DNA from: an uncultured Gemmatimonadota bacterium
GTDB taxonomy: Bacteria > JAAXHH01
Direction: 5' to 3'
DNA: 64,000 nt
Assembly: GCA_951812955.1 (NCBI GenBank)
Contig: OX638340.1
Location: 3,136,001-3,200,000, forward strand
The translations under genes and the position numbers were made by a program. Below, piece after piece: positions 6,286-59,585 of the stretch. The notes beneath the pieces are model-generated. The model searched no databases. It saw nothing but the letters and a program-made list of their open reading frames with translations, and was not told the origin of the DNA. The stretch's first letter is position 1, and each line of letters begins with the position of its first letter.

Positions 6286-6305
6286 GGGCAGCCCCTGGAG
6301 GTAAA

Positions 6306-8191: not shown

Positions 8192-8198
8192 AGTCCCG

Positions 8199-9545: not shown

Positions 9546-9570
9546 TTGCGGTAAATGGCCTGGGGAATCG

Positions 9571-13326: not shown

Positions 13327-13355
13327 CTAATGTATTTCCTAGGTTGTAGGGTTGC

Positions 13356-15644: not shown

Positions 15645-16367
15645 GCCCTTCTCATCGTCTACGGTCCGGAACGACCGTCCCTGGCCGGACTCGGTGCCCC
15701 AGTTCCCGTAGCGTGAATCGACCGCGTTATCCTGTGTATGCCCGGGTGGTATGACGCGGGAGATCCTCAGCAGGGGGTCGTCGTCGTAGGTGGTCTGGAT
15801 GATGCGTTCTGCAGCGTCTGCGCGGGCCAGGGCGCCGTAGGTATGCTAGGCGGCCGGTGCACAGACCTGAGGACGTGCTTGGGAAGGCTCGTCCGGTTGT
15901 ATCTCGATCGGGCTTCTACATCGCCGGCGCCAGACCCAACTCTGGTCTGTATACAGAGCGCCAGGGTCTATAATCCGCCTGGTACAGTATCAGCCACATA
16001 GGCGAAGTCTGTTGCACAGAACAAGACATCGTCGGTCCACCAATGGTCATGACCGGCCGTATCATTACGGACAGACCGACCTATGAGACTGTATAGAGGC
16101 ACACCGAGGTCGTTTATGATGTTCTGATGTTTTCATTTGTGAGCCTTCTGCATTTACTCTCAACTGACCACCGACAAAAGTGAAACCGGGCTTGCCACGA
16201 CACCTGATCTACCAAAACAGTGGGTTTAGCCAGACCGGAAGAATCCATTGAGTACGGTACCTATAAAACAACTCTGTCCTTGCTTCAAAATAACACAGGA
16301 CCTGGACAAGCTGCGTTCCTATCAACAGCAGGCAACAACCTGTCCAGGAACCCGGCATATACCCAAC

Positions 16368-17036: not shown

Positions 17037-17061
17037 GATTTCTCCTGGGGTTGGACTTCGG

Positions 17062-18918: not shown

Positions 18919-19291
18919 GCGGCTGCGCCAGGAGGTGTTGTCGGGGTGACGCGGATGAGGCCGTGTTTACTCGGAGTAATTGGGCTTGCTAGGAGCGGAT
19001 AGTGAGTAAAGCACTTACCTAGTATGTCGCCTTTGCATGCGACGGGTCCAATCCGACCGGCTACCGTTGCGTCGAAGGCGGCCTGAAGCCACTCAGTCGT
19101 TCAGCCTTGTCCTAAATTGTCAGCATGATTTGCTGAGATTGGTTTTCTTGATTCTCTACAACAAATGTCTGACGCTCAATTCTCATTGTAGCATCTGTCT
19201 ATCCAACGTAGCAACTATGAACTCCATCGAATAAACCATTCAAACATCCAAGCCGACGTACCTACAGGACATTGTTAGTCCGTTCAGAAGC

Positions 19292-28107: not shown

Positions 28108-28293
28108 GGTGAACTCCTTTAACATGGATGAATTGGAAAGGGGGTTGAATGAAACGCGCGATGTCAACGCATGGATGTATCGGATGAAGACCGGCATGAT
28201 GCGCTCCTTGATGGCGGACGGAACAGCCGCCCGGCATGGATCCTGCAACTCGTTATCGGGATGTGAGACTGAAGTCTTTGCGGGCATGAAATG

Positions 28294-34663: not shown

Positions 34664-34737
34664 GATATATCCTTTCATGGTATGCATCTGTTGGCAGATG
34701 GATTTGTACCGGCCGGGCCCTCGCCCGGTCCGGGTGG

Positions 34738-35118
34738 TCAGTAGCTCCATATCGTCGGCCTGGGAATGCCCGGCGCCTTGTCGAGGTCGTCGACGTGCAC
34801 GTAGCGGCTCCGGAAGTCCCCCCGCTGCCTGATGCCGATGCCGGTGAAACCGAGCATCAGCGCCATGCGGACGAGCCGGTGCGCCTTGTCGCCCGATATC
34901 GCGATGTCGACGGCCCGGCCGGCCAGATGGGCCGAACGGGACCTGCCCCCCACCTTGGCGTTGTGCTGGGGCGATCTGTACGCCGAGGTGACGATCAAAG
35001 GGAAACCGAGTTCCTCGCGCAGCAGCACGAGCCTGAGCATGAATCGCTCGTCCATCTCGTGCCTGCCGGTGTCCGGCGAGGAAAGGATCTGGTTCGGGAA
35101 GTACGGCCACGACTTCAT
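34738..35118 (-). CDS. peptidase M15 (VanY/YcbK-like zinc D-Ala-D-Ala carboxypeptidase fold), endolysin-like
   Basis: SAYRSPQHNAKVGG, SAHLAGRAVDI, YVHVDD zinc-ligand motifs. ATG 35118 preceded by SD AAGGAGG. Confidence 0.7.
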   Translation of the reverse strand: MKSWPYFPNQILSSPDTGRHEMDERFMLRLVLLREELGFPLIVTSAYRSPQHNAKVGGRSRSAHLAGRAVDIAISGDKAHRLVRMALMLGFTGIGIRQRGDFRSRYVHVDDLDKAPGIPRPTIWSY

Positions 35119-35247
35119 TTGCAAACCTCCTTGCCTTCCTTCCCCGGGACCCGATTTGTCGAACCCTCGGGGAAAGAAGACCTGTATGTACTGCGGTGAA
35201 CGATATGAACGCTTCTGCCAGGCGAACCGGATGACCCGGGTACGCAT

Positions 35248-35496
35248 TCACTTGAGCCGGCGGATCGTGAATGCGGGAGTATCCCATGCAGGATCACCTG
35301 CGTCCGCGTTCGGGGTGCTATGCGGAAGGACGCCGGACCGCCGGGTGGTCGCCCGGACGGTCCGCTCCTTCCCCTTCAACTGCTTGACGGCGGCTGACGG
35401 ACCGCCGTGTGCGGGCTTCCGATCGTTGCCGGGAGCCCTTGTATCTGCTTTGAGACCAACGCTGGTCGATCCTGCATCCGCGCGTTGCCGCTTCAT
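35248..35496 (-). CDS. small basic hypothetical protein
   Basis: 82-aa K/R-rich ORF. Start overlaps the stop of 35493..35702 (ATGA). Weak. Confidence 0.25.
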   Translation of the reverse strand: MKRQRADAGSTSVGLKADTRAPGNDRKPAHGGPSAAVKQLKGKERTVRATTRRSGVLPHSTPNADAGDPAWDTPAFTIRRLK

Positions 35497-41214: not shown

Positions 41215-42189
41215 TTGTTAGCGGTACAAAAGATTACCTGCTGCATTAATACTGAAGTAAGGCAACTTATCTGTGAGGTGTTTGTGGACGAGTATTCCAA
41301 TTTAATCAAAGCAATCGCTACATTTCTGTGGCCATCTCTTACTTTTGTTGTCGTTCTCATCTTCAGAAGAGAGATTGGAGATGCAATTGAGCGCCTCAAA
41401 AAAGGCAAGTTGTTTGGTCAGGAGGTAGAGCTTCATAATAACCTAGAAACATTACATCAGTCAGTATCTCGGGCATCGGACGAGGTTGCGTCACTGCCGA
41501 AGCCGAAAGAACTGGAAAACGAAGACGATGGCCAGCACAGGGATAAAGAAGACGACGAAGTGATTCGTTCAGTTATACATGAAGCGTCGCATTCTCCTAA
41601 GGCGGCATTGATGATTTTGGCTGCCGAGATAGAAAAGGAAGCCAGGTTAATTCTTGCTAGTGTCGGCAAGATAGATGGACGGTCGCACATTCCAATAACT
41701 CAGGCCATTCGTGTCTTGGATTCACACTATGGACTACCGCGTTTTCTTTCCAGCAGCCTGAACCTATTTTGGGACACTCGCAACAAGTTAATCCATGGCA
41801 GAGACACCGAAGACGGGAATGTCCTCAGTGCGCTTGATTCTGGTATTACGATTTTGAAATCGCTGCAAGCCCTTCCAAGGCAGCTAAACATCGTTTACAA
41901 AACGGGGGTACCAATCTACTCAGATCCAGATTGCCAACACGAGATTACCAATGCGACTGGAGTGATTCTAGAAAGTCGATCCAATGAATATGCGCAGTTT
42001 TGTTACAGGATTTTCCCTACAACTCGTTCACATTTTGAGGAGGGTAGATCAGTAGCCTGGGAATGGAATATGAACGATATTTGGCAAGACGCTTGGTACC
42101 GAGATCCTCTAGAACCTGGGGGAGCGATTAAACTTGCCTGGAATTCTTCCGCAGAATTTATAGGCCGTCATTTAGACGACCTTGGATAA
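41215..42189 (+). CDS. membrane-anchored protein with C-terminal HEPN-like domain (Rx4H), Abi-like
   Basis: N-terminal TM helix IATFLWPSLTFVVVLIF. Helical domain with FWDTRNKLIHG (R-x4-H). Low-GC, at the island edge. Confidence 0.45.
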   Translation: MLAVQKITCCINTEVRQLICEVFVDEYSNLIKAIATFLWPSLTFVVVLIFRREIGDAIERLKKGKLFGQEVELHNNLETLHQSVSRASDEVASLPKPKELENEDDGQHRDKEDDEVIRSVIHEASHSPKAALMILAAEIEKEARLILASVGKIDGRSHIPITQAIRVLDSHYGLPRFLSSSLNLFWDTRNKLIHGRDTEDGNVLSALDSGITILKSLQALPRQLNIVYKTGVPIYSDPDCQHEITNATGVILESRSNEYAQFCYRIFPTTRSHFEEGRSVAWEWNMNDIWQDAWYRDPLEPGGAIKLAWNSSAEFIGRHLDDLG

Positions 42190-42658: not shown

Positions 42659-43378
42659 ATGGATTCGACGGGTCAATCGGACTGGTTAATGGCAAAATTG
42701 GACGCACACTACAAGGGACACCGTAGCCGACTCCGTGAGCGGTTCCAAAAGAGTGGATTTGGTGGATTCGCTGAGCACGAGGTCATTGAGTTACTGTTGA
42801 CGATGGCCATGACCCGTTCGGACGTAAAACCACAGGCCAAGATGTTGCTTGAGCGTTTTGGCAGTCTGCGAGGCATTTTGGATGCACCAGTATCCGAACT
42901 GCAGTCGGTAAAGGGAATTGGTGAGATTTCAGCCATACTACTGAAAGTTATCCGTGAATCGGCGACGATGTATTTATTGGAAGCATCAAAAGAAACAGAA
43001 GTCCTCAGCGATCCGGAGCGGCTCAGCAATTTCTGGCGCATGCGAATCGGCCATCTTAAGAACGAAGTGTTCGCTGTCGCTTACCTTGATTCAGCTTATC
43101 GGTTGTTGCGTAATGGCGTAGAAACGCTTCAGGAAGGTACGATAGACCGTGCAGCGGTGTACCCGCGCCGCGTCGTGGAGGCGGCACTTAATCGCCAGGC
43201 GGCGGCCCTCGTGCTCGCGCACAACCATCCGAACGGCGATGTCGAGCCGAGCGAACAGGACAAGATGATAACACGCGCCGTCACGCTTGCAGCCGAAACC
43301 ATCAGCATACGAGTCGTCGATCATCTAATAGTGTCGGCCTCGGAGACTTTCAGTTTCAGAAAAGCGGGACTGCTATGA
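42659..43378 (+). CDS. radC: RadC-like JAB/MPN domain protein
   Basis: JAMM motif LAHNHPNGD, ExnS region. N-terminal HhH-like segment (GIGEISAILL). Confidence 0.8.
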   Translation: MDSTGQSDWLMAKLDAHYKGHRSRLRERFQKSGFGGFAEHEVIELLLTMAMTRSDVKPQAKMLLERFGSLRGILDAPVSELQSVKGIGEISAILLKVIRESATMYLLEASKETEVLSDPERLSNFWRMRIGHLKNEVFAVAYLDSAYRLLRNGVETLQEGTIDRAAVYPRRVVEAALNRQAAALVLAHNHPNGDVEPSEQDKMITRAVTLAAETISIRVVDHLIVSASETFSFRKAGLL

Positions 43379-46239
43379 GTATCGCGCCAGCGATCCAGAA
43401 GCACTTTCCTGAGCTTATCTACAGCCAGAGGGAGGTCGTCGGCCATCTCGACGGACCGTTGCTGGTGATTGCGGGACCGGGATCGGGCAAGACTTTCAGC
43501 ATTGTCCTGAGGGCCTTGAATCTTATGTTGCTGGAGAAGGCCGAGCCAAATGAGATTCTGCTCTGCACCTTTACCGAAAAAGCTGCCTACGAGATGCGGG
43601 ACCGATTGACTGCAGCGGCCCGTAAAGTGGCGTACACGGGTGACCTTTCCGAACTGAAGGTCTCGACCATACACGGCTTCTGCCACCGGATGCTCGCCCA
43701 ACACCGGCACAAGACTGAACTCGGGCACAACTACGAAACGCTCGACGAATTGACACAACTTCTCTTCATATTCGAGCACTTCGACGAGATCATCGGTCCG
43801 CCTATCGACGACCGTTTTCTCACTCGCTGGAAAACGCGTTGGACAGCCATTGAAGGCGTGCGTGGCTATTTTGACAAGATCACGGAAGAATTGGTAGACT
43901 CTCGCTGCCTTACGGCATCCTCCGACCCATTTTTGTCGGTGATTGGTACTGCGTATCAACACTACGAACAAGCCCTGCAAGTGGCCAACAGGATTGACTT
44001 TGCCCACCTGCAGAGAACCGTATACGGCCTGCTGGACAACTCTACGGACACCGCTGCCATTTCCACCGACGTGCGCTATCTGCTGGTAGACGAGTATCAG
44101 GACACGAACTACATACAAGAGCGGATTCTCCTGAAGTTGGCCGAACCGGGCAACAACTTATGCGTCGTAGGGGATGAGGATCAAAGCCTCTACCGTTTCA
44201 GGGGCGCGACTGTCCGTAACATCCTGGAGTTCGCACAGCACTTTCAGGAATGCAGGATCGCCAGGTTGACAACAAACTACCGGTCTCACCGCTCAATTGT
44301 AGAGCGCTACGACCATTGGATGGAGTCGGCTGACTGGTCCGATCCAGCGGGAGGTTCATACCGACACGAGAAAACCATCGTTGCTGATCCCATGGCGCAA
44401 CATCCTGACTATCCCTCTGTCATAAGCATTTGGGGAAGGAACAGGCACGATGAAGCCGACCGGTTCGCCGATCTCGTCGAGTTCCTTAAAGAGAGCGAGG
44501 TAATAGTAGATTACAGTCAGATCGCATTGTTGCTGCACAGCGTGCGCGAACAACACAGCGGCCCTTATCTGGAGGCGTTGCGGCGCAGGGGCATCCCCGC
44601 GTTCTGTCCTCGGGCGCGCGTCTTCTTCCATATACCGGAGATTCGCTATCTGATCGCCTGTTATGCCATTTTGTTCGGCTGGTACGGCGACCGGCGCGGT
44701 GATCTCATAGGCGTCGTGAAGCAACTTGCTGAGTACGTGGACGAGGCCATTATCGACTTAAGCAAGCGCTTCGTGTCCACCGACCCGCTCGCGGAGAGAC
44801 TTCAGAGTTGGACCGGCGAGATCGCGGCGCTTCAGGAAGAAGAGACGCTCGACCTGCGGCCGGCCGATTATTTCTATAGACTGATCGCACTTGATCCATT
44901 CCGGAAGGCTGTCCGAAACGAAAACACCGCACGCAACTTAGCCATTTTCTCCGAACTTCTGACCATTTTTCAAAGCTATTATCATTTTCCGGTCATTACG
45001 TACAGGAATCGCGAGTACATCCGATTTCACTTCTTCAACAGCTTCTTGCGATTTCTCCACGCTGGCGGAATCAACGAGTACGAGGATCCGGACAAGCCGT
45101 TCCCTCGGGGCCACGTGCAGGTGATGACTGTCCATCAGGCCAAGGGCCTTGAGTTCCCTGTAGTCGTTGTCGGGTCCCTTTCGGTGTCTTTAAGCAGCCC
45201 CAAGCAAATCGATCGCAACCTTATGCCATTCTATCACCGCCCGCCCTTCGAGCCGGAGGACCGGATCACGCTCTTCGACCGCATGCGGTTGCACTACGTA
45301 GCGTTTTCACGACCGGAAAGACTGCTGGTACTTACCGCGCACGAACAACCGAAAGACTACTTCTCACCCATTTGGCAAGGGCTTCCCCAGTGGCCGTACA
45401 TCCCTAAGGAAACGCTGGCCAGCCAATCCTTCGAGCGACACGAGCGTATGCCGATCAAAAAGACGTATAACTTTACGGGTGATCTCAAGGTTTACGAAAC
45501 ATGCCCTCGCCAATATCAGTTCTTCCGCGAATACGGCTTTGCACCCTCCCGTTCCGCGGAGATGTTCTTTGGACTGCTCGTACATCAGTCTATCGAGGAA
45601 ATCCACCGTATCGCCCTTGACGGCCTAATCCATACGCTGGACGACGCGCGTGTCGGCGAGTTGTTTGAAAGAACTTACCAGTTTCTAAATCTCACCGATA
45701 GGCGTCCCATTGGCGATAGAGCGAAGGAGTTGGCTTTAAAGCAGGTATTGAACTATTATCGACAGAACCAGGATGGATTGAATCGGATCATCGAGACGGA
45801 GGTGGATGTATCGCTGGAGAAAGACGGGTACATACTCGCAGGAAAGGTCGATCTTCTTCTCGGCGACGACGGCAAGTTGGAACTATTGGATTTCAAAACC
45901 TCGCCGCGTCCGGCAAGCACGCCCGAACTAATCGCCGCATACGGAAGACAACTCTGCACCTATGCGCATATACTGGAGCAACGGCACGAAAAACATGTGG
46001 ACCGGTTGCTACTGTATTGGACAGCAGAGAAATCACGGGACCAGGCGCTCATGGTCCTGCCGTTACGCCCGGAATCGATAGAGGAAGCGGGCCGATACTT
46101 CGACGAGACCGTAAAACGGATTCAGACAGGTAAATTCGTGGTAAACACACCTCCCGAAGCGAAAGTCTGCCAGGAATGCGACCTGCAGATGCTGTGTCAC
46201 GCGGACGGTGTTATAGAATGGGCGGAGGCAGTCGCTTGA
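43375..46239 (+). CDS. UvrD/PcrA-family SF1 helicase fused to a C-terminal Cas4/AddB-like PD-(D/E)xK nuclease with a 4-Cys cluster
   Basis: Walker A AGPGSGKTFSIV. UvrD motifs (LLVDEYQDTN, VMTVHQAKGLEF). C-terminal C-x5-Y..D..GKVDLL..LELLDFKT and CQECDLQMLC. ATGA overlap with radC. Confidence 0.8.
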   Translation: MSIAPAIQKHFPELIYSQREVVGHLDGPLLVIAGPGSGKTFSIVLRALNLMLLEKAEPNEILLCTFTEKAAYEMRDRLTAAARKVAYTGDLSELKVSTIHGFCHRMLAQHRHKTELGHNYETLDELTQLLFIFEHFDEIIGPPIDDRFLTRWKTRWTAIEGVRGYFDKITEELVDSRCLTASSDPFLSVIGTAYQHYEQALQVANRIDFAHLQRTVYGLLDNSTDTAAISTDVRYLLVDEYQDTNYIQERILLKLAEPGNNLCVVGDEDQSLYRFRGATVRNILEFAQHFQECRIARLTTNYRSHRSIVERYDHWMESADWSDPAGGSYRHEKTIVADPMAQHPDYPSVISIWGRNRHDEADRFADLVEFLKESEVIVDYSQIALLLHSVREQHSGPYLEALRRRGIPAFCPRARVFFHIPEIRYLIACYAILFGWYGDRRGDLIGVVKQLAEYVDEAIIDLSKRFVSTDPLAERLQSWTGEIAALQEEETLDLRPADYFYRLIALDPFRKAVRNENTARNLAIFSELLTIFQSYYHFPVITYRNREYIRFHFFNSFLRFLHAGGINEYEDPDKPFPRGHVQVMTVHQAKGLEFPVVVVGSLSVSLSSPKQIDRNLMPFYHRPPFEPEDRITLFDRMRLHYVAFSRPERLLVLTAHEQPKDYFSPIWQGLPQWPYIPKETLASQSFERHERMPIKKTYNFTGDLKVYETCPRQYQFFREYGFAPSRSAEMFFGLLVHQSIEEIHRIALDGLIHTLDDARVGELFERTYQFLNLTDRRPIGDRAKELALKQVLNYYRQNQDGLNRIIETEVDVSLEKDGYILAGKVDLLLGDDGKLELLDFKTSPRPASTPELIAAYGRQLCTYAHILEQRHEKHVDRLLLYWTAEKSRDQALMVLPLRPESIEEAGRYFDETVKRIQTGKFVVNTPPEAKVCQECDLQMLCHADGVIEWAEAVA

Positions 46240-46306
46240 TGTCCAAGGAATTCTTTATTCTCATCCAAAATCGGATGATGTTTGGCAAACCAAAAGGAAC
46301 CTGAAA

Positions 46307-48274
46307 ATGGCAAAGATCGACATCACAAAGACCGAATTGGTCTGGCCTGGAAAGTTCGATGAGGATGGAACGCTTAGGGAAGTTCCTCGGGTCAACCTGC
46401 CATTTCAAGTCATCGAAACCGTGAATGAGAGTCGTGCTACGCGCGAAGTAAAGAAAGGTACGGTGCAGGAGTCCCTTTTTGATTTCTATGAAGGTAAGGA
46501 GGGGGACACCTTTGAGGATGGATGGAAGAACAAGCTCATATGGGGCGACAATCTGCTGGTGATGGGTTCATTGCTGGAGAAGTTTGCAGGGAAGATCGAT
46601 CTGATCTACATCGATCCGCCTTTTTTTACAGGAGTTAACCAGCTAGCAACGGTGTTTCTTGGGGAGGGCAATACTGGATTTGAGAAAGAGACGTCAATCA
46701 CAGAGGATGTAGCGTATAGAAATGCGTGGCGTGACGGGGATCCGTCCTTCATGACATGGATTCGAGATCGACTCAGTCTTATGCGTGATCTTCTCAAACC
46801 GAGCGGCATTATCTTCATTAGGTTTGACCAATACTGGAGCCACAGCGTTAAACTGATCGCAGATGAAGTCTTTAGCCGGGATTTGTTTCAGAACGAGATT
46901 ACAGTGAAACGTATTTTTAAAAACGTCACAGGTCAAGGTCGCGTCTCAATTCCACTCGCTACAGATACATTGTTTTTGTACTTCCGAACCGATCAAGCGC
47001 AATTTGCAGATACCCTAGTTCCAAGGGAGAAGACGCGGCCGGGATTCTGGCGACACATGGACGATTCTTCGGGCGTCAGGCGTCCACCTGAGCGCCGTAT
47101 GTTTGGAAGAGTCTTCTATCCACCGCCTGGCAAGCATTTCAAATTTTCCCAAGCAAACATCGACAAGAAGATAGCAGATGGAAAAGTCAGACTCAATCCC
47201 AAGACTGGTAAGCCCGAGTACTGGGTCGAGGAGAGTTCAGTTAAACCCTTGAATTCGAATTGGACAGACATCCCAGGCTACTCGTTCACTACCTCCTATC
47301 CAACGGAAAATTCCGAAGCACTCCTTCAAAGAGTCATCAAAGTTGCGTCACATCCGAATGCACTCGTGGCAGATTTCTTCGGTGGTTCTGGCACGACAGC
47401 AGCAGTCGCTGAACAACTTGGCCGTCGCTGGATCACGTGCGACGTTGGTCGTTTTTCGATCCACACGATTCGGAAGCGACTGCTCGACATTGAAAACTGC
47501 CAACCCTTCGAGGTACTGAACCTTGGTAAATATGAGCGCCAGTATTGGCAGGGGGTGACGTTCGGCGGTCAGAGCAACAAGTCACTAACCGAAAAAGCAC
47601 TCTATGAGTACCTTGCCTTCATCCTTAAGCTATATGGCGCACAGCCGGTAGCGGGATTGGAACATCTACATGGGAAGAAAAACAAGGCTATGATACACAT
47701 TGGCGCGGTGGATGCCCCGGTCACCATTGACGAGATCGATGATGCTGTAGAAAATTGTGCCAAACTGAAGCAGGCTGAATTGCACGTTCTTGGCTGGGAA
47801 TGGGAAATGGGACTCCAGAATCTTGTAGTTTCACAAGCACAGAAGAAGGGCGTGAAACTAATACTCCTGCAGATACCCTTGGAAGTGATGGAGCAACAGG
47901 CCGTGGATGATGGCGATATCCGATTTTTCGAACTGGCCTATTTAAGGGCGATGATAGTAAAACCAAAGAAACTTACCGTGCAAGTTCACCTTAAAGATTT
48001 TGTCATCCCCAACACCGAACTCATCCCTGAAGAAGTGCGGGACAGGGTTACGAAGTGGTCGGACTACATCGACTACTGGACTGTGGACTGGGACTTTCAG
48101 AACGACACCTTCATGCAGGGATGGGTAGCCTACCGCACCCGCAAAGATCGAACGCTCTCACTCATTTCCGACTTTCACACTTATGAAAAGCCCGGCAAAT
48201 ACCAAGCTCTGGTCAAAGTAATCGACATCTTCGGCAACGACACCTCGCAACTTCTTGATGTCGAGGTGAATTAA
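46307..48274 (+). CDS. mod: Type III restriction-modification methyltransferase (Mod, beta-class N6A/N4C MTase)
   Basis: Motif IV DLIYIDPPF precedes motif I ALVADFFGGSGTTAAVA. Confidence 0.8.
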   Translation: MAKIDITKTELVWPGKFDEDGTLREVPRVNLPFQVIETVNESRATREVKKGTVQESLFDFYEGKEGDTFEDGWKNKLIWGDNLLVMGSLLEKFAGKIDLIYIDPPFFTGVNQLATVFLGEGNTGFEKETSITEDVAYRNAWRDGDPSFMTWIRDRLSLMRDLLKPSGIIFIRFDQYWSHSVKLIADEVFSRDLFQNEITVKRIFKNVTGQGRVSIPLATDTLFLYFRTDQAQFADTLVPREKTRPGFWRHMDDSSGVRRPPERRMFGRVFYPPPGKHFKFSQANIDKKIADGKVRLNPKTGKPEYWVEESSVKPLNSNWTDIPGYSFTTSYPTENSEALLQRVIKVASHPNALVADFFGGSGTTAAVAEQLGRRWITCDVGRFSIHTIRKRLLDIENCQPFEVLNLGKYERQYWQGVTFGGQSNKSLTEKALYEYLAFILKLYGAQPVAGLEHLHGKKNKAMIHIGAVDAPVTIDEIDDAVENCAKLKQAELHVLGWEWEMGLQNLVVSQAQKKGVKLILLQIPLEVMEQQAVDDGDIRFFELAYLRAMIVKPKKLTVQVHLKDFVIPNTELIPEEVRDRVTKWSDYIDYWTVDWDFQNDTFMQGWVAYRTRKDRTLSLISDFHTYEKPGKYQALVKVIDIFGNDTSQLLDVEVN

Positions 48275-48276
48275 CC

Positions 48277-51120
48277 ATGGCAAAAGCCGTCATCAATTAC
48301 GACAAGGAGTTGCCGGAGATTCAAGATCGGCGACCTTGGGAAAAGCCCGGATCCTACTTGGTCAAGGACGAAGAGGAGCCAACGGGTTGGCGGGAGGATA
48401 CTTCCGGCCGTCGCCCGACCAAGCTTCTGCTGGTGCCTAAAATCCGTAAGGCCGTTGATGCGTGGCGAGACAGTGGCTACAAAGGAGCATCGGAAGTCTC
48501 CCTGCGCTTGTTTGAGTATTGGTTCCATGAGGATCACAAGGTCAACGGATTCGATACGCCGTTCCGGTACTACTTCTGCCAACGAGAAGCTATAGAAACG
48601 CTGGTCTGGTTGGTGGAGGTCGCCTGCCAGCAGGACGCGATAGCGCTTATAGAGAAATATGGATCGTTCTATCAACTGGACCTTCTATCGAAAAACATTG
48701 AGTTTCAGACTACCATAGATGGCAGGCGGCAGATTCGTCGATACATACCAGAACTGGAACAACATGGCATACAGGACTTACCGTCCAAAGAATTGCGTCG
48801 CTACGCCTTCAAGATGGCCACTGGGTCGGGTAAAACCTGGGTGATGGCCATGATGGTCGTCTGGTCGTGTTTCCACAAGCAGCGCGTACCTGGTTCGAAA
48901 CTTTCCACGAATTTCCTTATCGTAGCCCCCAATGTGATCGTCTATCAGCGGCTGGAGAAGGACTTTGCAAACAACCGGATATTTAATGAGTTACCATTGA
49001 TCCCGCCGGAATGGAAAGGCAATTTTAACCAAAAGGTGATTTTGCGCGGGGAAGTCGCTGAGCCCGACCCGTCGGGGAATCTGTTTCTTACGAATATCCA
49101 TCAACTGTACGAATCTCGCGATCAGAAGTGGACCCCGGGAAACGCCGTCGAAGCCCTCCTGGGCAAGACCCCCGCGCCAGATCTCGCGGCATCTGGTCAG
49201 CGGACCATGCTGGAGTGCGTGAAGTATCTAAAAGACCTCGTCGTGCTAAATGACGAAGCCCACCACGTCCATGATGACGACCTATCCTGGAATCAATCTC
49301 TGCTGGCTATTGATAATGCGTTGCCGAAGGGACTCTGCGCTTGGCTCGACTTTTCAGCCACGCCGAAAGACCAGAACGGCATGTACTTCCCTTGGACCGT
49401 TGTGGACTACCCGTTGGCACAGGCCGTGGAGGATAGAATCGTCAAAGCCCCACTCATCGTAACCAAGGGGGATGATCCCAATCAGCCGACCGAAGATCCC
49501 GATGGGATCACTAAGGAGAACGTAGCACAGAAATACGGTTACTGGCTACAGGCCGCCGCGCAACGTTGGAAGGAACACTGGCAGATTTACAGGAAGCTCG
49601 GGACCAAGCCTGTCCTCTTTGTCATGGCTGAAAAAAACATCTATGCAGATGCCCTGGGAGAGTATCTGTGGAAGACTAAGGAATTTGGTTTCAAGGAATC
49701 CGAGGTACTCGTTATCCATACGGACAATACGGGTGAAGTTCGGAAAGGGGATATCGAGAAAGCCCGGAAGGCTGCAAGAGACATCGATAAGGCAGAGAGC
49801 AAAATAAAAGTGATCGTCAGCGTTATGATGCTGCGCGAGGGTTGGGACGTTCGGAATGTTACAGTGGTACTGGGTTTGCGCCCCTATACTGCGAAAGCCG
49901 AGATATTGCCGGAACAGGTGATCGGTCGCGGACTTCGTCTGATGACCCAGGTAAGCCCCGACCAAACGCAGACCCTTGAGGTGCTCGGAACGCGTAACCT
50001 GCTCGAAGTGCTACGCGATCAACTTGAGGCTGAGGGCGTCGGAGTAGCGAGTACGAAGGACAATACGCCACTGCCAGTCATCATTGAGCCGGTGCAGGAA
50101 CGACTGAATTACGACATCGCCATTCCAATCACGAAACCGAGTCTAACACATGATTTCCGCAAACTGTCCACCGTTGATGTGCCATCGCTGGAAGCGATTT
50201 ACGATCAGGAAGAACTGGCCGAACCGTTTCGGGTCGGTCTGAAGATGGAATTCGCAATGACGGAGACCGAGGTTCATCAAGCCGACGTTGCGTTGCAACT
50301 CCGACCTGCCCAGGAGCTTTTGGCGAGCATCGCCAACAAGACGGCTGAGCGCGCCAATCTGACTAACTGTTTTGCGGAATTGTATCCCATTATTCAGGAT
50401 TATGTCGAGAATCGTTGCTTTGGACATAAAATTGAACTGTCAGATGAAACCATTCGCTCCCATCTCGAAAGATTGGAGTTGCAGAATGGGATTGCCGGAT
50501 ACATGGCACGTAAGCTTTCGACGCTTTCCATTAAACGGCATGCAGTCGAGTTCGAGAAAGAGGATTACCGTCTTTCCCTGACCAGACCCTTTAGCTGGCG
50601 ACGCAACTTGCCACCAATGCAGGCGTACAAAACGATTTTCAACTTCGTGGCCACCTACAATGACTTTGAGCGAAGCTTTGCGACGTTCTTGGATGGAGCG
50701 GAAGATGTGGTGCGCTTTGCGGCACTTGGCACGACAGAACAAGGACGTTCCGGTACGACATTTCACATCGACTACCTGAAACCGACTGGGGCTATCGGAT
50801 TCTACTATCCAGACTGGGTAGTCGTTCAAAAGGCCAAAGATAACGAAGTGAACTGGATCGTTGAGACCAAGGGCCGAGTCTGGGAAGGAACCGCCGAAAA
50901 AGATGTCGCAGCGCGAAACTGGTGCAAGCGGGTAAGCAACGCCACGGGAAAGCCTTGGAAGTACACCCGCATCAACCAGTCAGAGTTTACGGATGAACTC
51001 GCGACGTTTCGCGCACTGATTGTAGATAAGGCGATTAAAACCTCAGTTCAACGACACGAAAACATGCAACCGGTAACGCAGGAAGAAATCCGCCGCTGGA
51101 AAGAAGAGGGCCGTCGCTGA
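48277..51120 (+). CDS. res: Type III restriction endonuclease Res subunit (SF2 helicase + C-terminal nuclease)
   Basis: Walker A MATGSGKTWVMA. DEAH box LNDEAHHV. Motif VI QVIGRGLR. C-terminal D..VETKG nuclease motif. Adjacent to mod. Confidence 0.8.
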   Translation: MAKAVINYDKELPEIQDRRPWEKPGSYLVKDEEEPTGWREDTSGRRPTKLLLVPKIRKAVDAWRDSGYKGASEVSLRLFEYWFHEDHKVNGFDTPFRYYFCQREAIETLVWLVEVACQQDAIALIEKYGSFYQLDLLSKNIEFQTTIDGRRQIRRYIPELEQHGIQDLPSKELRRYAFKMATGSGKTWVMAMMVVWSCFHKQRVPGSKLSTNFLIVAPNVIVYQRLEKDFANNRIFNELPLIPPEWKGNFNQKVILRGEVAEPDPSGNLFLTNIHQLYESRDQKWTPGNAVEALLGKTPAPDLAASGQRTMLECVKYLKDLVVLNDEAHHVHDDDLSWNQSLLAIDNALPKGLCAWLDFSATPKDQNGMYFPWTVVDYPLAQAVEDRIVKAPLIVTKGDDPNQPTEDPDGITKENVAQKYGYWLQAAAQRWKEHWQIYRKLGTKPVLFVMAEKNIYADALGEYLWKTKEFGFKESEVLVIHTDNTGEVRKGDIEKARKAARDIDKAESKIKVIVSVMMLREGWDVRNVTVVLGLRPYTAKAEILPEQVIGRGLRLMTQVSPDQTQTLEVLGTRNLLEVLRDQLEAEGVGVASTKDNTPLPVIIEPVQERLNYDIAIPITKPSLTHDFRKLSTVDVPSLEAIYDQEELAEPFRVGLKMEFAMTETEVHQADVALQLRPAQELLASIANKTAERANLTNCFAELYPIIQDYVENRCFGHKIELSDETIRSHLERLELQNGIAGYMARKLSTLSIKRHAVEFEKEDYRLSLTRPFSWRRNLPPMQAYKTIFNFVATYNDFERSFATFLDGAEDVVRFAALGTTEQGRSGTTFHIDYLKPTGAIGFYYPDWVVVQKAKDNEVNWIVETKGRVWEGTAEKDVAARNWCKRVSNATGKPWKYTRINQSEFTDELATFRALIVDKAIKTSVQRHENMQPVTQEEIRRWKEEGRR

Positions 51121-51542
51121 TGGCCACTGTGATCGATGCTTCGGTGATGGTAGCCTTCCTGTTACGCAACGAAGATAATAGTCGTTACGCACGACGAATA
51201 GTCGAAAGACTTGATAGGGAAGAACTGATCGTGCCGAGGATTTTCTGGTATGAAGTTCGTAATGTTCTATTGAAGGCGAAACGGAACAATCGAATTGGGC
51301 AACAGGATTTTGAAGATTGCCTGATTCAACTCACGGATGAGATTTCACCGACAGAGGATGACAGAAACGACGAAGATAGGACGTTGGACCTCGCACTACG
51401 TCATAACCTTACGGTATATGACGCAAGCTATCTCGAGACGGCCATCAGACGCAAAGCTAGCTTGGCGACCTTCGATCGAAACCTCGCGGATGCGGCCTCT
51501 AGCGAAAGAGTTGAGAATCCGGCAGTCGGTTTTAGCGCTTAG
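51120..51542 (+). CDS. PIN domain ribonuclease (VapC-like), no adjacent antitoxin
   Basis: VIDASVMVAFLL (Asp5), EVRN (Glu), TVYDASYLE (Asp), TFDRNL (Asp). Start overlaps the res stop. Confidence 0.75.
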   Translation: MATVIDASVMVAFLLRNEDNSRYARRIVERLDREELIVPRIFWYEVRNVLLKAKRNNRIGQQDFEDCLIQLTDEISPTEDDRNDEDRTLDLALRHNLTVYDASYLETAIRRKASLATFDRNLADAASSERVENPAVGFSA

Positions 51543-52244: not shown

Positions 52245-54719
52245 ATGCCGAACTACCTTCCCCTCGACCTGTCCGCCCAGTGCAACTCCGGTCTCGAAGT
52301 CCTGATGGAAAAACCCAATGCGCCCATTGGCGAACAAACCTTCCGCGGCCTGCCATTCAGGGTCGGCGAAGACCCGGCGAAGTGTTTCATCGCACTGGAA
52401 GGCGCCACGGACGGCGTCACCGTACCGATCAACAGCCCGGCCACAGGCGTGATCCTGGCCCATCGCCTGCTGGAATCCGACCTGATGGAAGGCGGCCCGC
52501 TGGGGAAACCGGTGGCGGATTACGTGTTCCGCATGGCGGGAGGTGAGAAGATCCGCGTACCCATCCGCGAGCGGTTCGAAATCGCCCATATCTCTCTGGG
52601 CGGAAAGCCTTTCGTCGCGCTTCCGGACTCCGGTCAAGTAAAGATGCGGCGCCACAGCGGGACGTGGGGCGACGCGGGACGGCGTCAGACGGAAGTTACG
52701 GGCGACTATTCCAGGGGATACTTCCTCTGGGCCTGGCGAAACCCCCATCCCGACCGGGCGATCGAATCGCTGGAAGTCATTCCAAAGGGTCCACGGTTCA
52801 TCATCGCCGGACTTACGGTTTCCCAGGCGAATGAACATCCCTTCGTCCGCCAGGGGAAACGGGAAGCGCGCCTGACCCTGACCGATCCGGAAGACGCCGA
52901 GAAGCCCTTCGATCTGAGCGTAAACGTGGACCGGGGAATCGCCTCCTACGTCCATCCCCTGCCCGAGGCTTCGGCCGATGATTTCGTCGAAGATGATTTC
53001 GCCGGGTGGGGCGAGACGCAGAACCCGAAGTCGAGCCCGGCGTACGTCGAGGTCGCCGCGATCCCTTCGGCCACGGTGACGGTGAAGCAGGGCGAGGAAA
53101 AGGTGGGCGAGGTCAGGTGGGGCGACGTCGAGCAGAAGAAGGTCGTCGAGACGCCTCGCATGAAGGTGGAACTCCTGGACCGGGGCCGGAACTGGGTGAA
53201 TGTCACGGTTCTCGACGACGATACGGGAAGGCCGGTTCCGTGCCGCGTCCACTTCCGCTCGCCGGAAGGCATTCCCTACCAGCCCTACGGCCACCACAAC
53301 CAGGTCAACTCCAATCTGGACACCTGGCATGTCGACATCGGCGGAGACCTCCGGCTCGGACAGATCACCTACGCATACATCGACGGCAAGTGCCAGGGAT
53401 GGCTGCCCCGCGGCGAGGTGATCGTGGACGTGGCGCGGGGTTTCGAGTACGAGCCGCTGCGGACCCGGGTGAAGATCGAACCCGGTCAGCAAGATCTGAC
53501 CCTGCGGCTCAAACGTTGGGTAAACATGAACGCGCAGGGGTGGTACAGCGGGGATTCCCACGTCCACTTCCTCTCCACGCAGGGCAGCCACACGGAATCC
53601 CAGGGGGAGGACCTGAACATCGTGAACCTGCTCCCGTCGCAGTGGGGCAATCTCTTCACGAATACGGAGGATTTCACGGGCCGGCCGAGTATCTCGCAGG
53701 ACGGGAACAACATCGTCTACGTCGGCCAGGAAAACCGCCAGCACTTCCTGGGACACCTCATTCTCTGGGGCCTGAAGGAGCCGGTCATGCCCTGGTGCAG
53801 CGACGGTCCGGGCGAGGCGGAACTGGGCGGTACGCTGGAAATCACGATGAGCGACTGGGCGGACCAGTGCCACGCGCAGGGCGGTTCGGTCATTATCCCC
53901 CATCTCCCGAATCCGAACGGCGAGCCCGCGGCACTGATCGCCACGGGCCGCGCGGACGGCGTGGAGATGCTACGGCACCAGCCCTTCAACCACATCGAAT
54001 ACTACCGCTATCTTAACTGCGGATATAAGCTGCCGCTGGTGGGCGGGACGGACAAGATGAGCAGCGACGTGCCCGTCGGGCTATACCGCACCTACGCCTA
54101 CATGCCCGACCAGGACTTCACCTACGACAACTGGTGCGACGCCGTGTCCAAGGGCCGGACGTTCCACAGCGGCGGTCCGATCATCCACCTCTCCGTGGAC
54201 GGGCACGACGTCGGTGATACCGTGCAGGTGTCGAGGCCCGGAACGGTGGAGGTCCAGGCGTGGTCGGAGAGCATCTTCCCGATCCATACCCTGGAGATCG
54301 TCCAGGGCGGGCGGGTCGTGGCCTCCACGGAAGACCGCAACGGCGCTCGCCGACTGGAACTGAAGGCGCGGGTGAAGGTGGAGGGGCATACCTGGCTGGC
54401 CGCGCGGTGCGCGGGTCCCGACTATTCGAGCGTGCCCCATCACGACGGCTGGGGACGGGGGATCTTCGCCCACACCTCGCCGATCTACATCGCCTGCGGG
54501 GGCGAGTGGTGGATGTTCGACAAGGATGCCGCCCAATACATGCTCACCCTCATCGACGGCGACCTGCAGTACATCCGCCGCACCGCGGCGAGGCACGAGC
54601 CCGGCACGGCCACCCATCATCACGGCGAGGAAGATCATCTCGCCTACCTGGAGAGACCGTTTGTCGAGGCCAGGGAGGCGATTCACAAAAGGATGCACCA
54701 GTTGGGGATACCGCACTGA
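52245..54719 (+). CDS. large hypothetical protein with central PHP/CehA-McbA-like metallohydrolase region
   Basis: 824-aa ORF. WYSGDSHVHF, His-rich metal-site-like segments (HHNQ, PHHDGWGRG, THHHGEEDH). No other family recognised. Confidence 0.4.
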   Translation: MPNYLPLDLSAQCNSGLEVLMEKPNAPIGEQTFRGLPFRVGEDPAKCFIALEGATDGVTVPINSPATGVILAHRLLESDLMEGGPLGKPVADYVFRMAGGEKIRVPIRERFEIAHISLGGKPFVALPDSGQVKMRRHSGTWGDAGRRQTEVTGDYSRGYFLWAWRNPHPDRAIESLEVIPKGPRFIIAGLTVSQANEHPFVRQGKREARLTLTDPEDAEKPFDLSVNVDRGIASYVHPLPEASADDFVEDDFAGWGETQNPKSSPAYVEVAAIPSATVTVKQGEEKVGEVRWGDVEQKKVVETPRMKVELLDRGRNWVNVTVLDDDTGRPVPCRVHFRSPEGIPYQPYGHHNQVNSNLDTWHVDIGGDLRLGQITYAYIDGKCQGWLPRGEVIVDVARGFEYEPLRTRVKIEPGQQDLTLRLKRWVNMNAQGWYSGDSHVHFLSTQGSHTESQGEDLNIVNLLPSQWGNLFTNTEDFTGRPSISQDGNNIVYVGQENRQHFLGHLILWGLKEPVMPWCSDGPGEAELGGTLEITMSDWADQCHAQGGSVIIPHLPNPNGEPAALIATGRADGVEMLRHQPFNHIEYYRYLNCGYKLPLVGGTDKMSSDVPVGLYRTYAYMPDQDFTYDNWCDAVSKGRTFHSGGPIIHLSVDGHDVGDTVQVSRPGTVEVQAWSESIFPIHTLEIVQGGRVVASTEDRNGARRLELKARVKVEGHTWLAARCAGPDYSSVPHHDGWGRGIFAHTSPIYIACGGEWWMFDKDAAQYMLTLIDGDLQYIRRTAARHEPGTATHHHGEEDHLAYLERPFVEAREAIHKRMHQLGIPH

Positions 54720-57115: not shown

Positions 57116-57991
57116 ATGGATAAACGATTTTCAAACATAGATTTTCCAATGGCGCAGCTAGAGGATGAACTCGCCAGAGATCATGCTGTGTTCAAGGACT
57201 TGCTTTCAACTTCTATGGCGGAAATGGTAAACCAGAATCCGCAGCTTTTTTCGCTTAAAGTCAACAACATCAATAGCGTAAAGATTTACTTCGAGTTGGG
57301 ACGATCATTACCCAAAGGAGTATTATTGGATTTCCTTCTAAAACTTCAGCAACATGTAGAAGAAGAAATGTGTTCCTCTATAGCGACTCAAACTGGAAGA
57401 CCAATATCAATAGATGAGTTAAGCGGTGTTCTTACAGTTCCACAATCAGACTACCAAATACTGCGTGATTTGCAGGAGTATTATAAATCAAAGTTAGTTA
57501 AGAACATTCAAATTGGTATGTTGGGTATGATAAGCAGAAGTATCCCTGATACTCAACAAACACATCCTGATATTGAGATCGTTATCGACCTAAAAGATGT
57601 AGGAGGAACAAGGCGGTTTTTGTACGTCGAATCTCAGGGTAAAGTACAGAAAGATCTAGTGGTCAAGCTCACATCAGTGACCCTCGATACAAACGTTTTA
57701 ATGGAATGGTGGAAAGAGCAAAAAAAGGTAGAAGTAGTAGAGAATCTTCTGACAATGGGAGAGCAATTCGAAATTGATCTTGCGGTCACAAGTAGAATCC
57801 GCGATGACGTATTTCGTCCACCCCTGTCTGACAGGATTAATGAGCTACCCAGTCTGAATGTTCAAGAGATTGGGTCTGTTATACGAATCGGGCACTGGAA
57901 GGTAGGTGTAGACGCAGTGGGCGACACGGAGTTCAGGGAATTTGTAGATTCCAATGAAGTTCAACAGAAGATTAAATATTTGATAAAATGA
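57116..57991 (+). CDS. hypothetical protein, low-GC, possible C-terminal PIN-like segment
   Basis: VTLDTNVLMEWW resembles the first PIN motif. Otherwise unrecognised. Confidence 0.35.
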   Translation: MDKRFSNIDFPMAQLEDELARDHAVFKDLLSTSMAEMVNQNPQLFSLKVNNINSVKIYFELGRSLPKGVLLDFLLKLQQHVEEEMCSSIATQTGRPISIDELSGVLTVPQSDYQILRDLQEYYKSKLVKNIQIGMLGMISRSIPDTQQTHPDIEIVIDLKDVGGTRRFLYVESQGKVQKDLVVKLTSVTLDTNVLMEWWKEQKKVEVVENLLTMGEQFEIDLAVTSRIRDDVFRPPLSDRINELPSLNVQEIGSVIRIGHWKVGVDAVGDTEFREFVDSNEVQQKIKYLIK

Positions 57992-58211: not shown

Positions 58212-59585
58212 GTGGACACATTGACGGTTATTCTCTTCATCGCACTACTGGTCAGCCTTGGTCTGATAGCCGTGCTACTGTTCTGGAGCCAGAAGGCTAA
58301 CGCGCGGATCAACACGTTGAGCAGCGACAAGTCGGGCATGGAGACCGAACTGGGCTTGGCGCACGAGCAACTGGCAGAAGTACGCGAGCAACTGGCCGAA
58401 ACGAGGAAATCACTCGAAGAGGCCCGCAGGTTGGAAGTCGATCGGGCAAAGCTGCAACAGCAGCTCGCAAACGCGGAAGAACGCATCGGCGATCGTGACG
58501 AGGTGGAGAAGCGGTTTAAGGATACGTTCAAAGCTTTGTCGTCGGAGGTCCTGAAATCGCAGCAAGAGTCGTTCAAGGAGAGCGCCGAGGAAACGTTGAA
58601 AGCCCGGCAGGAGGCGGTTGAGAAGCTGGTAAAACCGTTGTCGGAGAAGATCGAGACGCTGGACAAGGCGCGAGCTAAAAACGCTGGCGAATTCCAGACC
58701 CAGATTTCGAACCTCATGCGGACCAACAAGGAGTTGGCCGAAGAGGCCCAGGCGCTGTCAAACGCGCTGAAGCGGCCCGACGTTCGCGGAAAGTGGGGCG
58801 AGACCCAGCTCGAGCGTGTGCTTGAACTGTCCGGACTGCGGAAGGACATCGATTTCACGGTGCAGGACAGCTTCAATAACGACGGAGAGCGCATACGGAC
58901 CGACGTGATCGTCCATCTGCCGCAGGACCGGACGGTGATTCTCGATTCCAAGGTGTCGCTGGCCGCCCTGATGGAAGCCTTTGAGACGGACGATGATGAA
59001 GCCAGGTCGGCAGCCTTCGATCGCCACGTAAGCCAGGTTAAGACCCACGTCGACTCTCTCTCAAAAAAGGAATACTGGAACGTCCTGGCCTCTACCCCCG
59101 ACATGGTGGTGATGGTCATGCCCGAATTCGCCTTCCTTCCCGCCATCGAAAGGGAGCCCGGCCTGACCGAACGGGCGCTGGAGAAAAACGTGATCATCGT
59201 CACGCCCCCGGCCCTGCTGGCGCTGCTCAAGGCCGTGGAGATGTCCTGGCAGCAGATCCGGGTCGCGGAGACCGCGCGGGAGATCAGCGACCTGGGCAAG
59301 GAGATGTACGAGCGCCTCGCGGTGTTCGCGGGCCACTACGTCAACGTGGGCAATTCGCTTCGGCAGGCGATTGAGCGGTACAATCGAAGTGTCGGATCAT
59401 GGGATACCCGGGTCGCCACGTCCGCCATGCGGTTCCCCGAACTGAACGTCCCCGTCACGCGGGAACTGCCGGAAGTATCTCCTGTGGATGAGATTCCCCG
59501 TACGATCCAGAAACTGACGGACGGTAAGGTGGAAGAAGGCCAGGCTGAAGACGTGGACGGGCGCGTCGTTGATAACGATGGATAG
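58212..59585 (+). CDS. rmuC: DNA recombination protein RmuC
   Basis: N-terminal TM + long coiled coil. RmuC core (RPDVRGKWGETQLERVLELSGL, DVIVHLPQDRTVILDSKVSLAA). GTG start with GGAG. Confidence 0.8.
   Translation: MDTLTVILFIALLVSLGLIAVLLFWSQKANARINTLSSDKSGMETELGLAHEQLAEVREQLAETRKSLEEARRLEVDRAKLQQQLANAEERIGDRDEVEKRFKDTFKALSSEVLKSQQESFKESAEETLKARQEAVEKLVKPLSEKIETLDKARAKNAGEFQTQISNLMRTNKELAEEAQALSNALKRPDVRGKWGETQLERVLELSGLRKDIDFTVQDSFNNDGERIRTDVIVHLPQDRTVILDSKVSLAALMEAFETDDDEARSAAFDRHVSQVKTHVDSLSKKEYWNVLASTPDMVVMVMPEFAFLPAIEREPGLTERALEKNVIIVTPPALLALLKAVEMSWQQIRVAETAREISDLGKEMYERLAVFAGHYVNVGNSLRQAIERYNRSVGSWDTRVATSAMRFPELNVPVTRELPEVSPVDEIPRTIQKLTDGKVEEGQAEDVDGRVVDNDG

Follow-up and report, generated by a model that had tools for sequence, protein, structure and literature searches.

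A Type III-like restriction-modification operon with a RadC-coupled helicase-nuclease and a predicted Res-tethered PIN toxin

The stretch of DNA considered here (the window) comprises 64,000 nucleotides of contig OX638340.1 from an uncultured Gemmatimonadota bacterium and carries a five-gene operon encoding a RadC protein, a UvrD-Cas4 helicase-nuclease (HelNuc), the Mod and Res proteins of a Type III-like restriction-modification (R-M) system and a PIN-domain protein. The operon is a well-populated, unnamed variant of Type III R-M, real but not categorically new, the core association of UvrD-Cas4 with Type III R-M genes being already known as a computational prediction from 2017 (PMC5704561). 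Three layers added to this core are undescribed in the literature searched, i.e. the coupling of RadC to HelNuc, a slot for defence cargo that can hold Tiamat genes, and a predicted role of Res as antitoxin to the PIN protein. On balance, the whole is probably a composite Type III-like R-M defence operon, in which a dedicated helicase-nuclease processes DNA ends and a toxin is tethered to Res.

A sequence-only reading of the window had proposed five co-oriented genes forming one coupled cluster, and the open reading frames (ORFs) are found exactly where it placed them, all on the plus strand. The features are:

42659-43378, plus strand: RadC, 239 residues, the first gene of the operon
43375-46239, plus strand: HelNuc (UvrD-Cas4 helicase-nuclease), 954 residues
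46240-46306: empty HelNuc-Mod cargo slot, intergenic, 67 nucleotides (nt)
46307-48274, plus strand: Mod, 655 residues
48277-51120, plus strand: Res, long form, 947 residues
50989-51117, plus strand: C-terminal extension of Res (residues 905-947), ending …PVTQEEIRRWKEEGRR, a predicted antitoxin-like, PIN-binding peptide
51120-51542, plus strand: PIN, 140 residues

The junctions are likewise as first read, with a 4-nt overlap of RadC and HelNuc, a 2-nt spacing of Mod and Res on the same strand, and an overlap of Res and PIN, which is of 1 nt and lies at a TGATG stop/start junction; only the HelNuc-Mod gap is corrected, from 68 to 67 nt.

Conservation, domains and the cargo slot

Related loci were sampled with a family-specific sub-alignment of the HelNuc C terminus, giving 80 metagenomic and 6 IMG/VR loci that were scored by tblastn; a scan with the full-length HelNuc alignment was not used, as it keyed on generic UvrD motifs and, among 80 loci, picked up 78 with unrelated UvrD helicases. 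RadC is directly upstream of HelNuc in 62 of the 70 loci with enough upstream DNA, and of the 28 with at least 8 kb downstream, 23 carry both Mod and Res. Among the sampled loci there is no conserved gene upstream of RadC, so the operon starts at RadC. The pairwise identities of RadC, HelNuc and Res are correlated over 33 loci (Spearman 0.73-0.85, with 0 of 500 Mantel permutations reaching the observed value), indicating that these genes diverge as a unit. All four genes, RadC-HelNuc-Mod-Res, are present at 60-73% identity in a Planctomycetota metagenome-assembled genome; more widely, genomes of Planctomycetota and others have them with proteins 60-78% identical, and in complete genomes reached by exact-protein look-ups they have the same order, sometimes with accessory genes or insertion sequence (IS) elements inserted. 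When the look-ups were made from the Res side, RadC was nearby in three of three loci, one intact and two decayed ones that keep Res-PIN. The same gene order in dozens of independent loci from several phyla takes the arrangement far beyond chance. The neighbourhood analysis thus reveals recurrent synteny with R-M genes and, together with the co-divergence, bears out the proposal of a coupled cluster, in the sense of a conserved, co-inherited unit rather than cargo of an integrative and conjugative element (ICE) or a chance neighbourhood.

The family is abundant, in that nearly all candidates lie above threshold in protein searches capped at 8,000 candidates each, and it is widespread, with members from Gemmatimonadota, Acidobacteriota, Planctomycetota and Proteobacteria and identities of >70% across phyla. 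The best 120 database matches to HelNuc are 71-92% identical to it, the named ones being from Gemmatimonadota, Vicinamibacterales (Acidobacteriota) and Planctomycetes; an exact-sequence look-up of the window HelNuc found no record.

More distant relatives, at 27-48% identity, have a three-gene HelNuc-Mod-Res operon with overlaps of 4-8 nt and without RadC. They include IMG/VR contigs (HelNuc 48% identical in L167 and L168, and 35% in L169) and plasmid versions from Phaeobacter inhibens, Nitrosomonas eutropha, Enterococcus faecium, Priestia megaterium and Spirosoma linguale. Depositors have annotated the distant genes as 'ATP-dependent DNA helicase', 'site-specific DNA-methyltransferase' and 'TnsA endonuclease N-terminal domain-containing protein'; in distant versions of Res the nuclease domain is swapped for a TnsA-like one. 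A further locus, L179, is at the left end (6285-14438) of the complete genome of a gut phage (PV036426.1, Acutalibacteraceae phage NatCom_11578), where HelNuc is followed by a 246-residue protein, a DNA methyltransferase and a Res-like protein whose nuclease is of the TnsA type, so that the system is carried by a phage too. The deep core of the family is HelNuc plus Mod plus Res, and the absence of RadC from all of the distant versions shows it to be a later addition, which became fixed in the dominant clade.

The domain assignments made initially for the five proteins are all confirmed by Pfam, PADLOC and NCBIfam scans, and all five proteins retain their catalytic residues. RadC has a UPF0758_N/HhH (PF20582) DNA-binding N-terminus and a JAB/JAMM domain (PF04002, 125 bits), in which the JAMM motif is intact (H188-x-H190…S198-x-x-D201; family pattern E…HxHx7Sx2D), and its nearest solved structure is 2qlc. 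It scores above the cut-off of the NCBIfam RadC equivalog NF000642 (194.6 versus 180), and is thus of the full-length YicR type, as opposed to the short form, with JAB only, that mobile elements typically carry. To our knowledge, RadC is among the most widespread bacterial proteins without a known function.

HelNuc consists of a superfamily 1 (SF1) UvrD/PcrA-type helicase (Pfam UvrD-helicase, 222 bits, and UvrD_C) and a C-terminal Cas4/AddB-type four-cysteine PD-(D/E)xK nuclease (PDDEXK_1, 90 bits, and Cas_Cas4), its best PDB matches being PcrA, UvrD, AdnB, AddA and RecB. Invariant among the aligned homologues are the helicase motifs (Walker A GSGKT36-40 and DEYQD239-243), the nuclease residues D826, D839-x-K841 and Q859…Y863, and C710, C932, C935 and C941, which make up the four-cysteine pattern. 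The 2023 version of PADLOC has no model that matches RadC or PIN, and among the 25 matches listed those for HelNuc are to generic UvrD-domain models only (GajB, DRT helicase), none being HelNuc-specific.

Mod matches N6_N4_Mtase (106 bits) and PADLOC MTase_III (348 bits), has the beta-class motif order of Type III Mods, with DPPF103 ahead of FGGSG358, and finds its best PDB matches in the Type III Mods 6k0w and EcoP15I 4zcf. Conservation is 0.8-0.97 at both of its ends, compared with 0-0.38 in residues 200-325, such that the target-recognition domain (TRD), at about residues 200-325 (nt 46904-47281), is hypervariable; by these features Mod is assigned a Type III architecture with an allele-swapping TRD. 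Res has a helicase-like ATPase of superfamily 2 (SF2) and a C-terminal PD-(D/E)xK endonuclease motif, with GSGKT183-187, DEAH326-329, PD845-846 and E863-x-K865 invariant among aligned homologues. Its Pfam matches are ResIII (69 bits) and, weakly, Helicase_C and RE_endonuc, and it matches PADLOC REase_III at 61 bits. With NCBIfam it scores 285 bits for the BPTD_3080 restriction endonuclease (cut-off 800) and 19.5 for the Type III endonuclease (cut-off 564); phmmer finds no PDB match for it, and the sole match in a search of the PDB with a profile from the Res alignment, a ribosomal protein, was judged to be due to chance. An AlphaFold2 model of Res from a 22-sequence alignment (at least 71% identity) has a mean predicted local distance difference test score (pLDDT) of 45 and a predicted template modelling score (pTM) of 0.35. 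Lacking a PDB match and falling below the NCBIfam cut-offs, Res leads us to file the system as Type III-like, rather than in the EcoP1I/EcoP15I family.

In classical Type III systems no product beyond those of the two genes is needed, and for cleavage the enzyme requires ATP and a pair of unmethylated sites in inverse orientation. The window resembles these systems (EcoP1I, EcoP15I) in that mod is immediately upstream of res, an arrangement kept in all intact loci, in its beta-class Mod with a central TRD, and in the ResIII/DEAH and PD-ExK motifs of Res. It differs in the addition of a conserved HelNuc and usually RadC, in that Res has no sequence-detectable similarity to solved Res structures, and in that the window mod has no phase-variation repeats, no simple-sequence repeat having been found in it. 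The presence of HelNuc as a conserved third gene argues against strict two-gene sufficiency in this family, although conservation is not proof.

Tiamat (TmtA) has been described as a single-gene defence system, and it is one of the genes seen at the HelNuc-Mod junction, which is empty in the window but is occupied in roughly half of the related loci by same-strand, tightly packed genes. The insert is TmtA/Tiamat-like in 25 loci (L088:5386-8682, L125:11143-15663 and 23 others), encoding 1,040-1,510 residues with a sacsin-like ATPase and NOV_C; one copy matches a PADLOC TmtA model over its full length (1,494 bits). The window itself is not a Tiamat system, as it has no TmtA and its slot is only 67 nt. 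In 13 loci the insert is a Schlafen/AlbA_2-HATPase_c_4-wHTH protein, as noted in PMC5704561; elsewhere DUF7380 is paired with a YhcG nuclease, or an AAA ATPase with a subtilase. Inserts are present at this junction in the distant versions from the phage and Spirosoma as well. In L128 (11125-15346), and also in L145, DUF7380 and a YhcG/DUF1016 PD-(D/E)xK nuclease replace Mod between HelNuc and Res, so that Res of L128 has no recognisable methyltransferase beside it.

The Res tail and the PIN protein

PIN (PF01850, 69 bits) is VapC-like, with the acidic residues D6, E45, D101 and D119 present. It follows the long form of Res (946-953 residues) in ten of ten loci, one IS-truncated remnant included, and never follows the short form (about 918-930 residues). 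The extra residues of the long form are a conserved tail, the window version of which ends …PVTQEEIRRWKEEGRR. The best 120 Res homologues comprise 88 long forms and 32 proteins under 939 residues; a regular expression for the tail motif fits 72 of the long forms, a further 15 being evident variants and one lacking the motif, and just one of the shorter proteins, itself a long form truncated at the N terminus.

The nearest free-standing homologues of PIN, at 38-40% identity, are annotated as VapC toxins on alphaproteobacterial plasmids, and each is preceded by an 80-residue Phd/YefM antitoxin (e.g. on Sinorhizobium, Methylosinus and Beijerinckia plasmids). The C termini of the four antitoxins (…PVTNDEILDWKREGQRF, …TTAEELLAWRDEGRRF, …TTPEEIHAWRDEGRRF and …LTLEEILSGRHEGHKY) share a motif, …T-x-E/D-E-I/L-x-x-W-K/R-x-E-G-R/Q, that matches the Res tail. 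In local alignments with the antitoxins, 45-residue tails of the window type give z = 5-11 against 300 shuffles, and the motif expression has only 11 matches in 5.3 million six-frame residues, all at the C terminus of a long-form Res or a Phd-type antitoxin; five are antitoxins, one of these being an unannotated antitoxin-like ORF. A 1-nt stop/start overlap, as at the Res-PIN junction, is present in three of the four antitoxin-toxin pairs, as TGATG in Methylosinus and Beijerinckia and as TAATG in Mesorhizobium. A 'hypothetical protein' encoded upstream of the Methylosinus Phd-VapC pair (L183, 713-931) ends …KPVTREEILAWRHEGHRC and is probably a second, unannotated antitoxin of the Phd/YefM type.

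The C-terminal region of Phd/YefM-type antitoxins is the part that binds the toxin. We infer that res acquired, by in-frame fusion, the 3' part of the gene for a Phd-type antitoxin along with its vapC, and the Res tail appears to be the antitoxin of PIN, tethering and neutralising it. The initial description of PIN as an orphan without antitoxin thus stands in so far as no separate antitoxin gene lies upstream of PIN, the preceding gene being res with no other ORF, but not with respect to the tail, which matches the toxin-binding C terminus of the antitoxins of PIN's own relatives. The likeness to Phd/YefM-VapC pairs lies in the identity of PIN to their toxins, in the C-terminal motif and in the TGATG junction; the difference is that the Res tail lacks the Phd DNA-binding/dimerisation domain, comprising about 25-40 C-terminal residues fused to a 900-residue subunit.

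The proposal is that the PIN RNase would be kept inactive through binding the Phd-antitoxin-like Res tail and would be released once Res is lost, degraded or blocked, so serving as an addiction module, as a PrrC-like anti-restriction guard, or as both. In the PrrC-EcoprrI precedent an anticodon nuclease (ACNase) is kept latent by a Type Ic restriction enzyme, and interference with restriction unleashes the toxin (PMC1484252; PMC12707154). The window is similar in having an RNase toxin in an R-M operon that would be silenced via the restriction enzyme; it differs in having a PIN fold rather than an ABC-ATPase/ACNase, in being Type III-like rather than Type Ic, and in that the predicted silencer is an antitoxin peptide fused to Res.

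Several decayed or disrupted copies of the operon bear on the relationship of Res to PIN. L172 (5610-13257) has no HelNuc, L173 (7426-13275) has neither HelNuc nor Mod, and L083 (12874-21037) has an IS element within mod; Res and PIN have stayed together in all three, the exception being L081 (17685-19308), where PIN is truncated beside a transposase. Such retention is as expected if losing res is costly. It also suits the narrower view that PIN and the Res tail are an addiction (post-segregational killing) device only, with no anti-restriction sensing or abortive infection, since L172 and L173 are what would be expected if loss of res were lethal; the ancestry of PIN in a plasmid-type Phd-VapC cassette, found beside integrase genes in L182-L185, points the same way. 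That view is compatible with the composite-operon explanation, but location of the peptide on Res, instead of on a free antitoxin, makes release of the toxin depend specifically on what happens to Res, the same logic as in PrrC-EcoprrI, and we regard addiction as the sole function as somewhat unlikely.

Proposed working of the system and alternatives

Features of a defence-type system are seen in the family, i.e. the hypervariable Mod TRD, spread across phyla, carriage by plasmids and a phage, nested defence genes and IS-disrupted or decayed copies. In the composite operon that we propose, Mod would mark host DNA and direct Res to unmodified sites on incoming DNA, where Res would make the first cut. 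RadC and HelNuc, which probably form a complex because their 4-nt translational coupling is conserved, would then load at the break, with HelNuc unwinding and degrading the foreign DNA; RadC, as a DNA-binding JAB metalloenzyme, may prepare or unblock DNA ends or may regulate HelNuc. The pair would thereby act as a system-owned exonuclease like RecBCD/AddAB, and would not depend on the host's own enzyme, which is often inhibited by phages. Degradation as a second line, anti-anti-restriction and abortive infection, the functions suggested in the sequence-only reading, are putative. HelNuc is similar to AddAB, AdnAB and RecBCD in its SF1 UvrD-like motor and RecB-family nuclease, with a four-cysteine cluster like those of AddB and Cas4, and differs from them in being a single 954-residue polypeptide with no such partner subunit, in its location in an R-M operon and in having RadC as its predicted partner.

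Several observations weigh against this proposal, or limit it. The order of action, Res first and then HelNuc, is pure inference, and Res is apparently too divergent from the solved Type III Res for classical Type III mechanics to be assumed. RadC is missing from 8 of the 70 close loci, as well as from all distant versions, and is thus dispensable for the core; RadC and the helicase are not an indivisible module, and the initial idea of a Type III system to which a helicase-nuclease module has been added provides the right frame, that of a conserved unit, but has to be amended in that its core lacks RadC. Further, two of 28 loci have RadC-HelNuc without R-M genes, and two distant HelNuc genes, on Annamia and Halomicrobium plasmids, stand alone, so HelNuc can exist outside the system. 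With respect to PIN, tail variants with a W-to-A change (L082, L083 and L147) align more weakly with the antitoxins (z = -1.1 to 4.2, mostly <2.2). A stricter joint claim, that Res doubles as an antitoxin holding a VapC RNase latent and that RadC-HelNuc is obligatory in a distinct three- or four-component R-M class, is made only tentatively, and we incline to doubt it.

An alternative division of labour, in which HelNuc is the main effector nuclease and Mod-Res is chiefly the sequence sensor and translocase that licenses it, as in multi-ATPase methylation systems such as MANTIS, DISARM or BREX and unlike a classical Type III enzyme of two subunits, would explain why HelNuc is kept in every version down to 27-35% identity and is always first in a tightly overlapping operon. 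It would also accommodate the distance of Res from canonical Type III Res and the TnsA-like nuclease swap in the distant versions, as well as the retention of HelNuc and Res without a recognisable Mod in L128, and MANTIS itself provides a precedent for a methyltransferase complex triggering a separate helicase-nuclease. However, the PD…ExK and ATPase motifs of Res do not vary within the family, an argument for cutting by Res itself, and L172 keeps Mod-Res-PIN without HelNuc; it is unlikely that HelNuc is the main effector.

It could also be that RadC-HelNuc serves in self-protection, repairing breaks made in host DNA by the Type III enzyme, by autoimmunity or by post-segregational cutting, and is not anti-phage. 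The resemblance of HelNuc to the recombinational repair enzymes AddA, RecB and AdnB is in line with such a role, as are the original link of RadC to repair (PMC5512222) and the suggestion in PMC5704561 of an ancillary RecB-like role, partly redundant with RecB. The same study found, however, that most genomes with a UvrD-Cas4 fusion already encode RecB, and the HelNuc-Mod-Res triad is also present on small plasmids and in a phage genome; nor is a Chi-recognition or RecA-loading element evident, though without a dedicated test for either. Host repair as the role of the pair is decidedly unlikely. That five independent modules were gathered by chance in a defence island, as the low-GC (guanine-plus-cytosine) island and the variable cargo at both of its edges might suggest, is extremely improbable, being effectively refuted by the neighbourhood statistics, i.e. 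the counts of syntenic loci, the co-divergence of the genes, their conserved overlaps and the retention of the triad in distant versions.

Setting of the locus, relation to known systems and significance

Two related metagenomic genomes, L170 and L084, share synteny with the window on both sides of the operon, with nucleotide identities of 90-94% for the operon and 79-93% for the flanks, which indicates that the operon is resident in the lineage and not newly inserted. The closest relative is a mosaic, with RadC 81%, HelNuc 92%, Mod 99%, Res 97% and PIN 90% identical. The edges of the operon are variable, the window having an additional 1.7 kb, with orf324, on the left and L170 an additional 6 kb on the right. 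The L170 insert (13266-19258), which is between PIN and the downstream chromosomal gene, encodes Beta-Casp/RMMBL, a Lactamase_B protein (with a weak match to Anti-Pycsar Apyc1), a 567-residue protein and a DUF4143 ATPase, and marks the right edge as a variable cargo site also.

GC content within the window is 0.43-0.55 between 41 and 52 kb, compared with about 0.60-0.65 in the flanks, and 0.48-0.54 in the genes of the cluster, compared with 0.59-0.66 in flanking genes. The low-GC island noted at the outset is thus real by GC, but is not coextensive with the system, as it also contains orf324 (41215-42189, plus strand, 324 residues, GC 0.45), which is between the chromosomal flank and RadC and has no Pfam, PADLOC or NCBIfam match. 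Homology with L170 and L084 breaks between window positions 41040 and 42716, orf324 being missing at the same junction in both; it was accordingly ruled out as a sixth component and is a separate small insertion, outside the operon.

The operon is surrounded by genes for hydrolases, an RHS toxin array and RmuC, and every named relative of this RmuC at 78-85% identity is labelled Gemmatimonadetes. Around the operon the window has no integrase, no tRNA and no machinery of conjugation or of a phage, and no flanking direct or inverted repeats suggestive of att sites; an ICE or prophage context was rejected in view of these neighbours and the synteny of the locus in related genomes. A promoter and terminator scan gave no signal above shuffle controls. 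Directly downstream of the operon, an 824-residue high-GC protein with no Pfam domain (52245-54719, plus strand) is kept at 86-93% nucleotide identity in L170 and L084, and is thus chromosomal rather than island cargo. A second small low-GC island (GC 0.40) carries a 291-residue ORF with no Pfam match (57116-57991, plus strand), shortly followed by RmuC (58212-59585) and by a DUF4143/AAA_14 ATPase (59823-61076). The RHS/YD-repeat toxin array spans about 26 kb (11132-37049) and includes a 2,430-residue RHS protein (20995-28287), a 1,941-residue Big_9/Big_2/cadherin-like protein (29462-35287) and orphan RHS C-terminal cassettes (17527-18918, 13356-15644 and 11553-12401), each followed by small low-GC ORFs, one of which encodes a Tox-URI2 toxin (17062-17484); L084, a close relative, lacks this block altogether, and window 8256-11132 there adjoins 37049 onward.

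With regard to known systems, Hudaiberdiev et al. (2017, BMC Evol Biol; PMC5704561) reported UvrD-Cas4 fusions to be monophyletic, most commonly in a neighbourhood with Type III Mod and Res and at some loci with additional WYL/HTH regulators and Schlafen-like ATPase-HTH proteins; they considered the fusion probably ancillary in defence, a comparative-genomics prediction with no name, experiment or mechanism. By its gene content the window belongs to this family, with a UvrD SF1 helicase that ends in a Cas4-like nuclease (PF12705) and is encoded beside Type III Mod/Res; Schlafen-like ATPase-HTH and WYL regulators are also found among its relatives. The 2017 study does not mention RadC/JAB, PIN, toxins (0 occurrences), a Tiamat-type slot gene or the Res tail. 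The suggestion that the five-gene arrangement is not a recognised named system therefore remains correct as to the name, but the placing of UvrD-Cas4 beside Type III Mod/Res was described in 2017. No later paper on the RadC-HelNuc-Mod-Res-PIN arrangement was found in the open-access literature, though such absence is not proof, and an Antarctic Chlorobium paper that lists radC and uvrD describes different R-M types.

Two named systems with partial likeness were considered and rejected. The UvrD-type helicase domain of HelNuc matches PADLOC models of GajB from Gabija, as a generic UvrD domain only, and the cluster has no gene for GajA (OLD-family ATPase/TOPRIM). MANTIS/Gao_RL also combines a methyltransferase with a helicase-nuclease effector, but its DUF499 AAA+ ATPase (MtsA), DUF3870 protein (MtsB) and PLD-SF2 effector (MtsD) are absent from the cluster.

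Although very abundant, the family is absent from a 2025 review of R-M biology, which makes no mention of UvrD, RadC, Cas4 or VapC (PMC12707154), and has no specific PADLOC 2023 models for RadC, PIN or HelNuc. If the proposed working is correct, the operon would illustrate how a RecBCD-like degrader can be supplied by a restriction system itself, and the canonical RadC would gain its first defined molecular partner, HelNuc, through which the function of RadC would become approachable in a system amenable to plaque assays. The Res tail and PIN would represent a new way in which a defence enzyme is wired to a toxin, as a Type III equivalent of PrrC-EcoprrI built by fusion. The slot between HelNuc and Mod would provide a defined site at which defence genes, such as Tiamat, are nested in the operon of another system, and would help in finding new ones; the nesting of Tiamat in 25 of these operons raises the question of whether it often works within, or with, this R-M variant.

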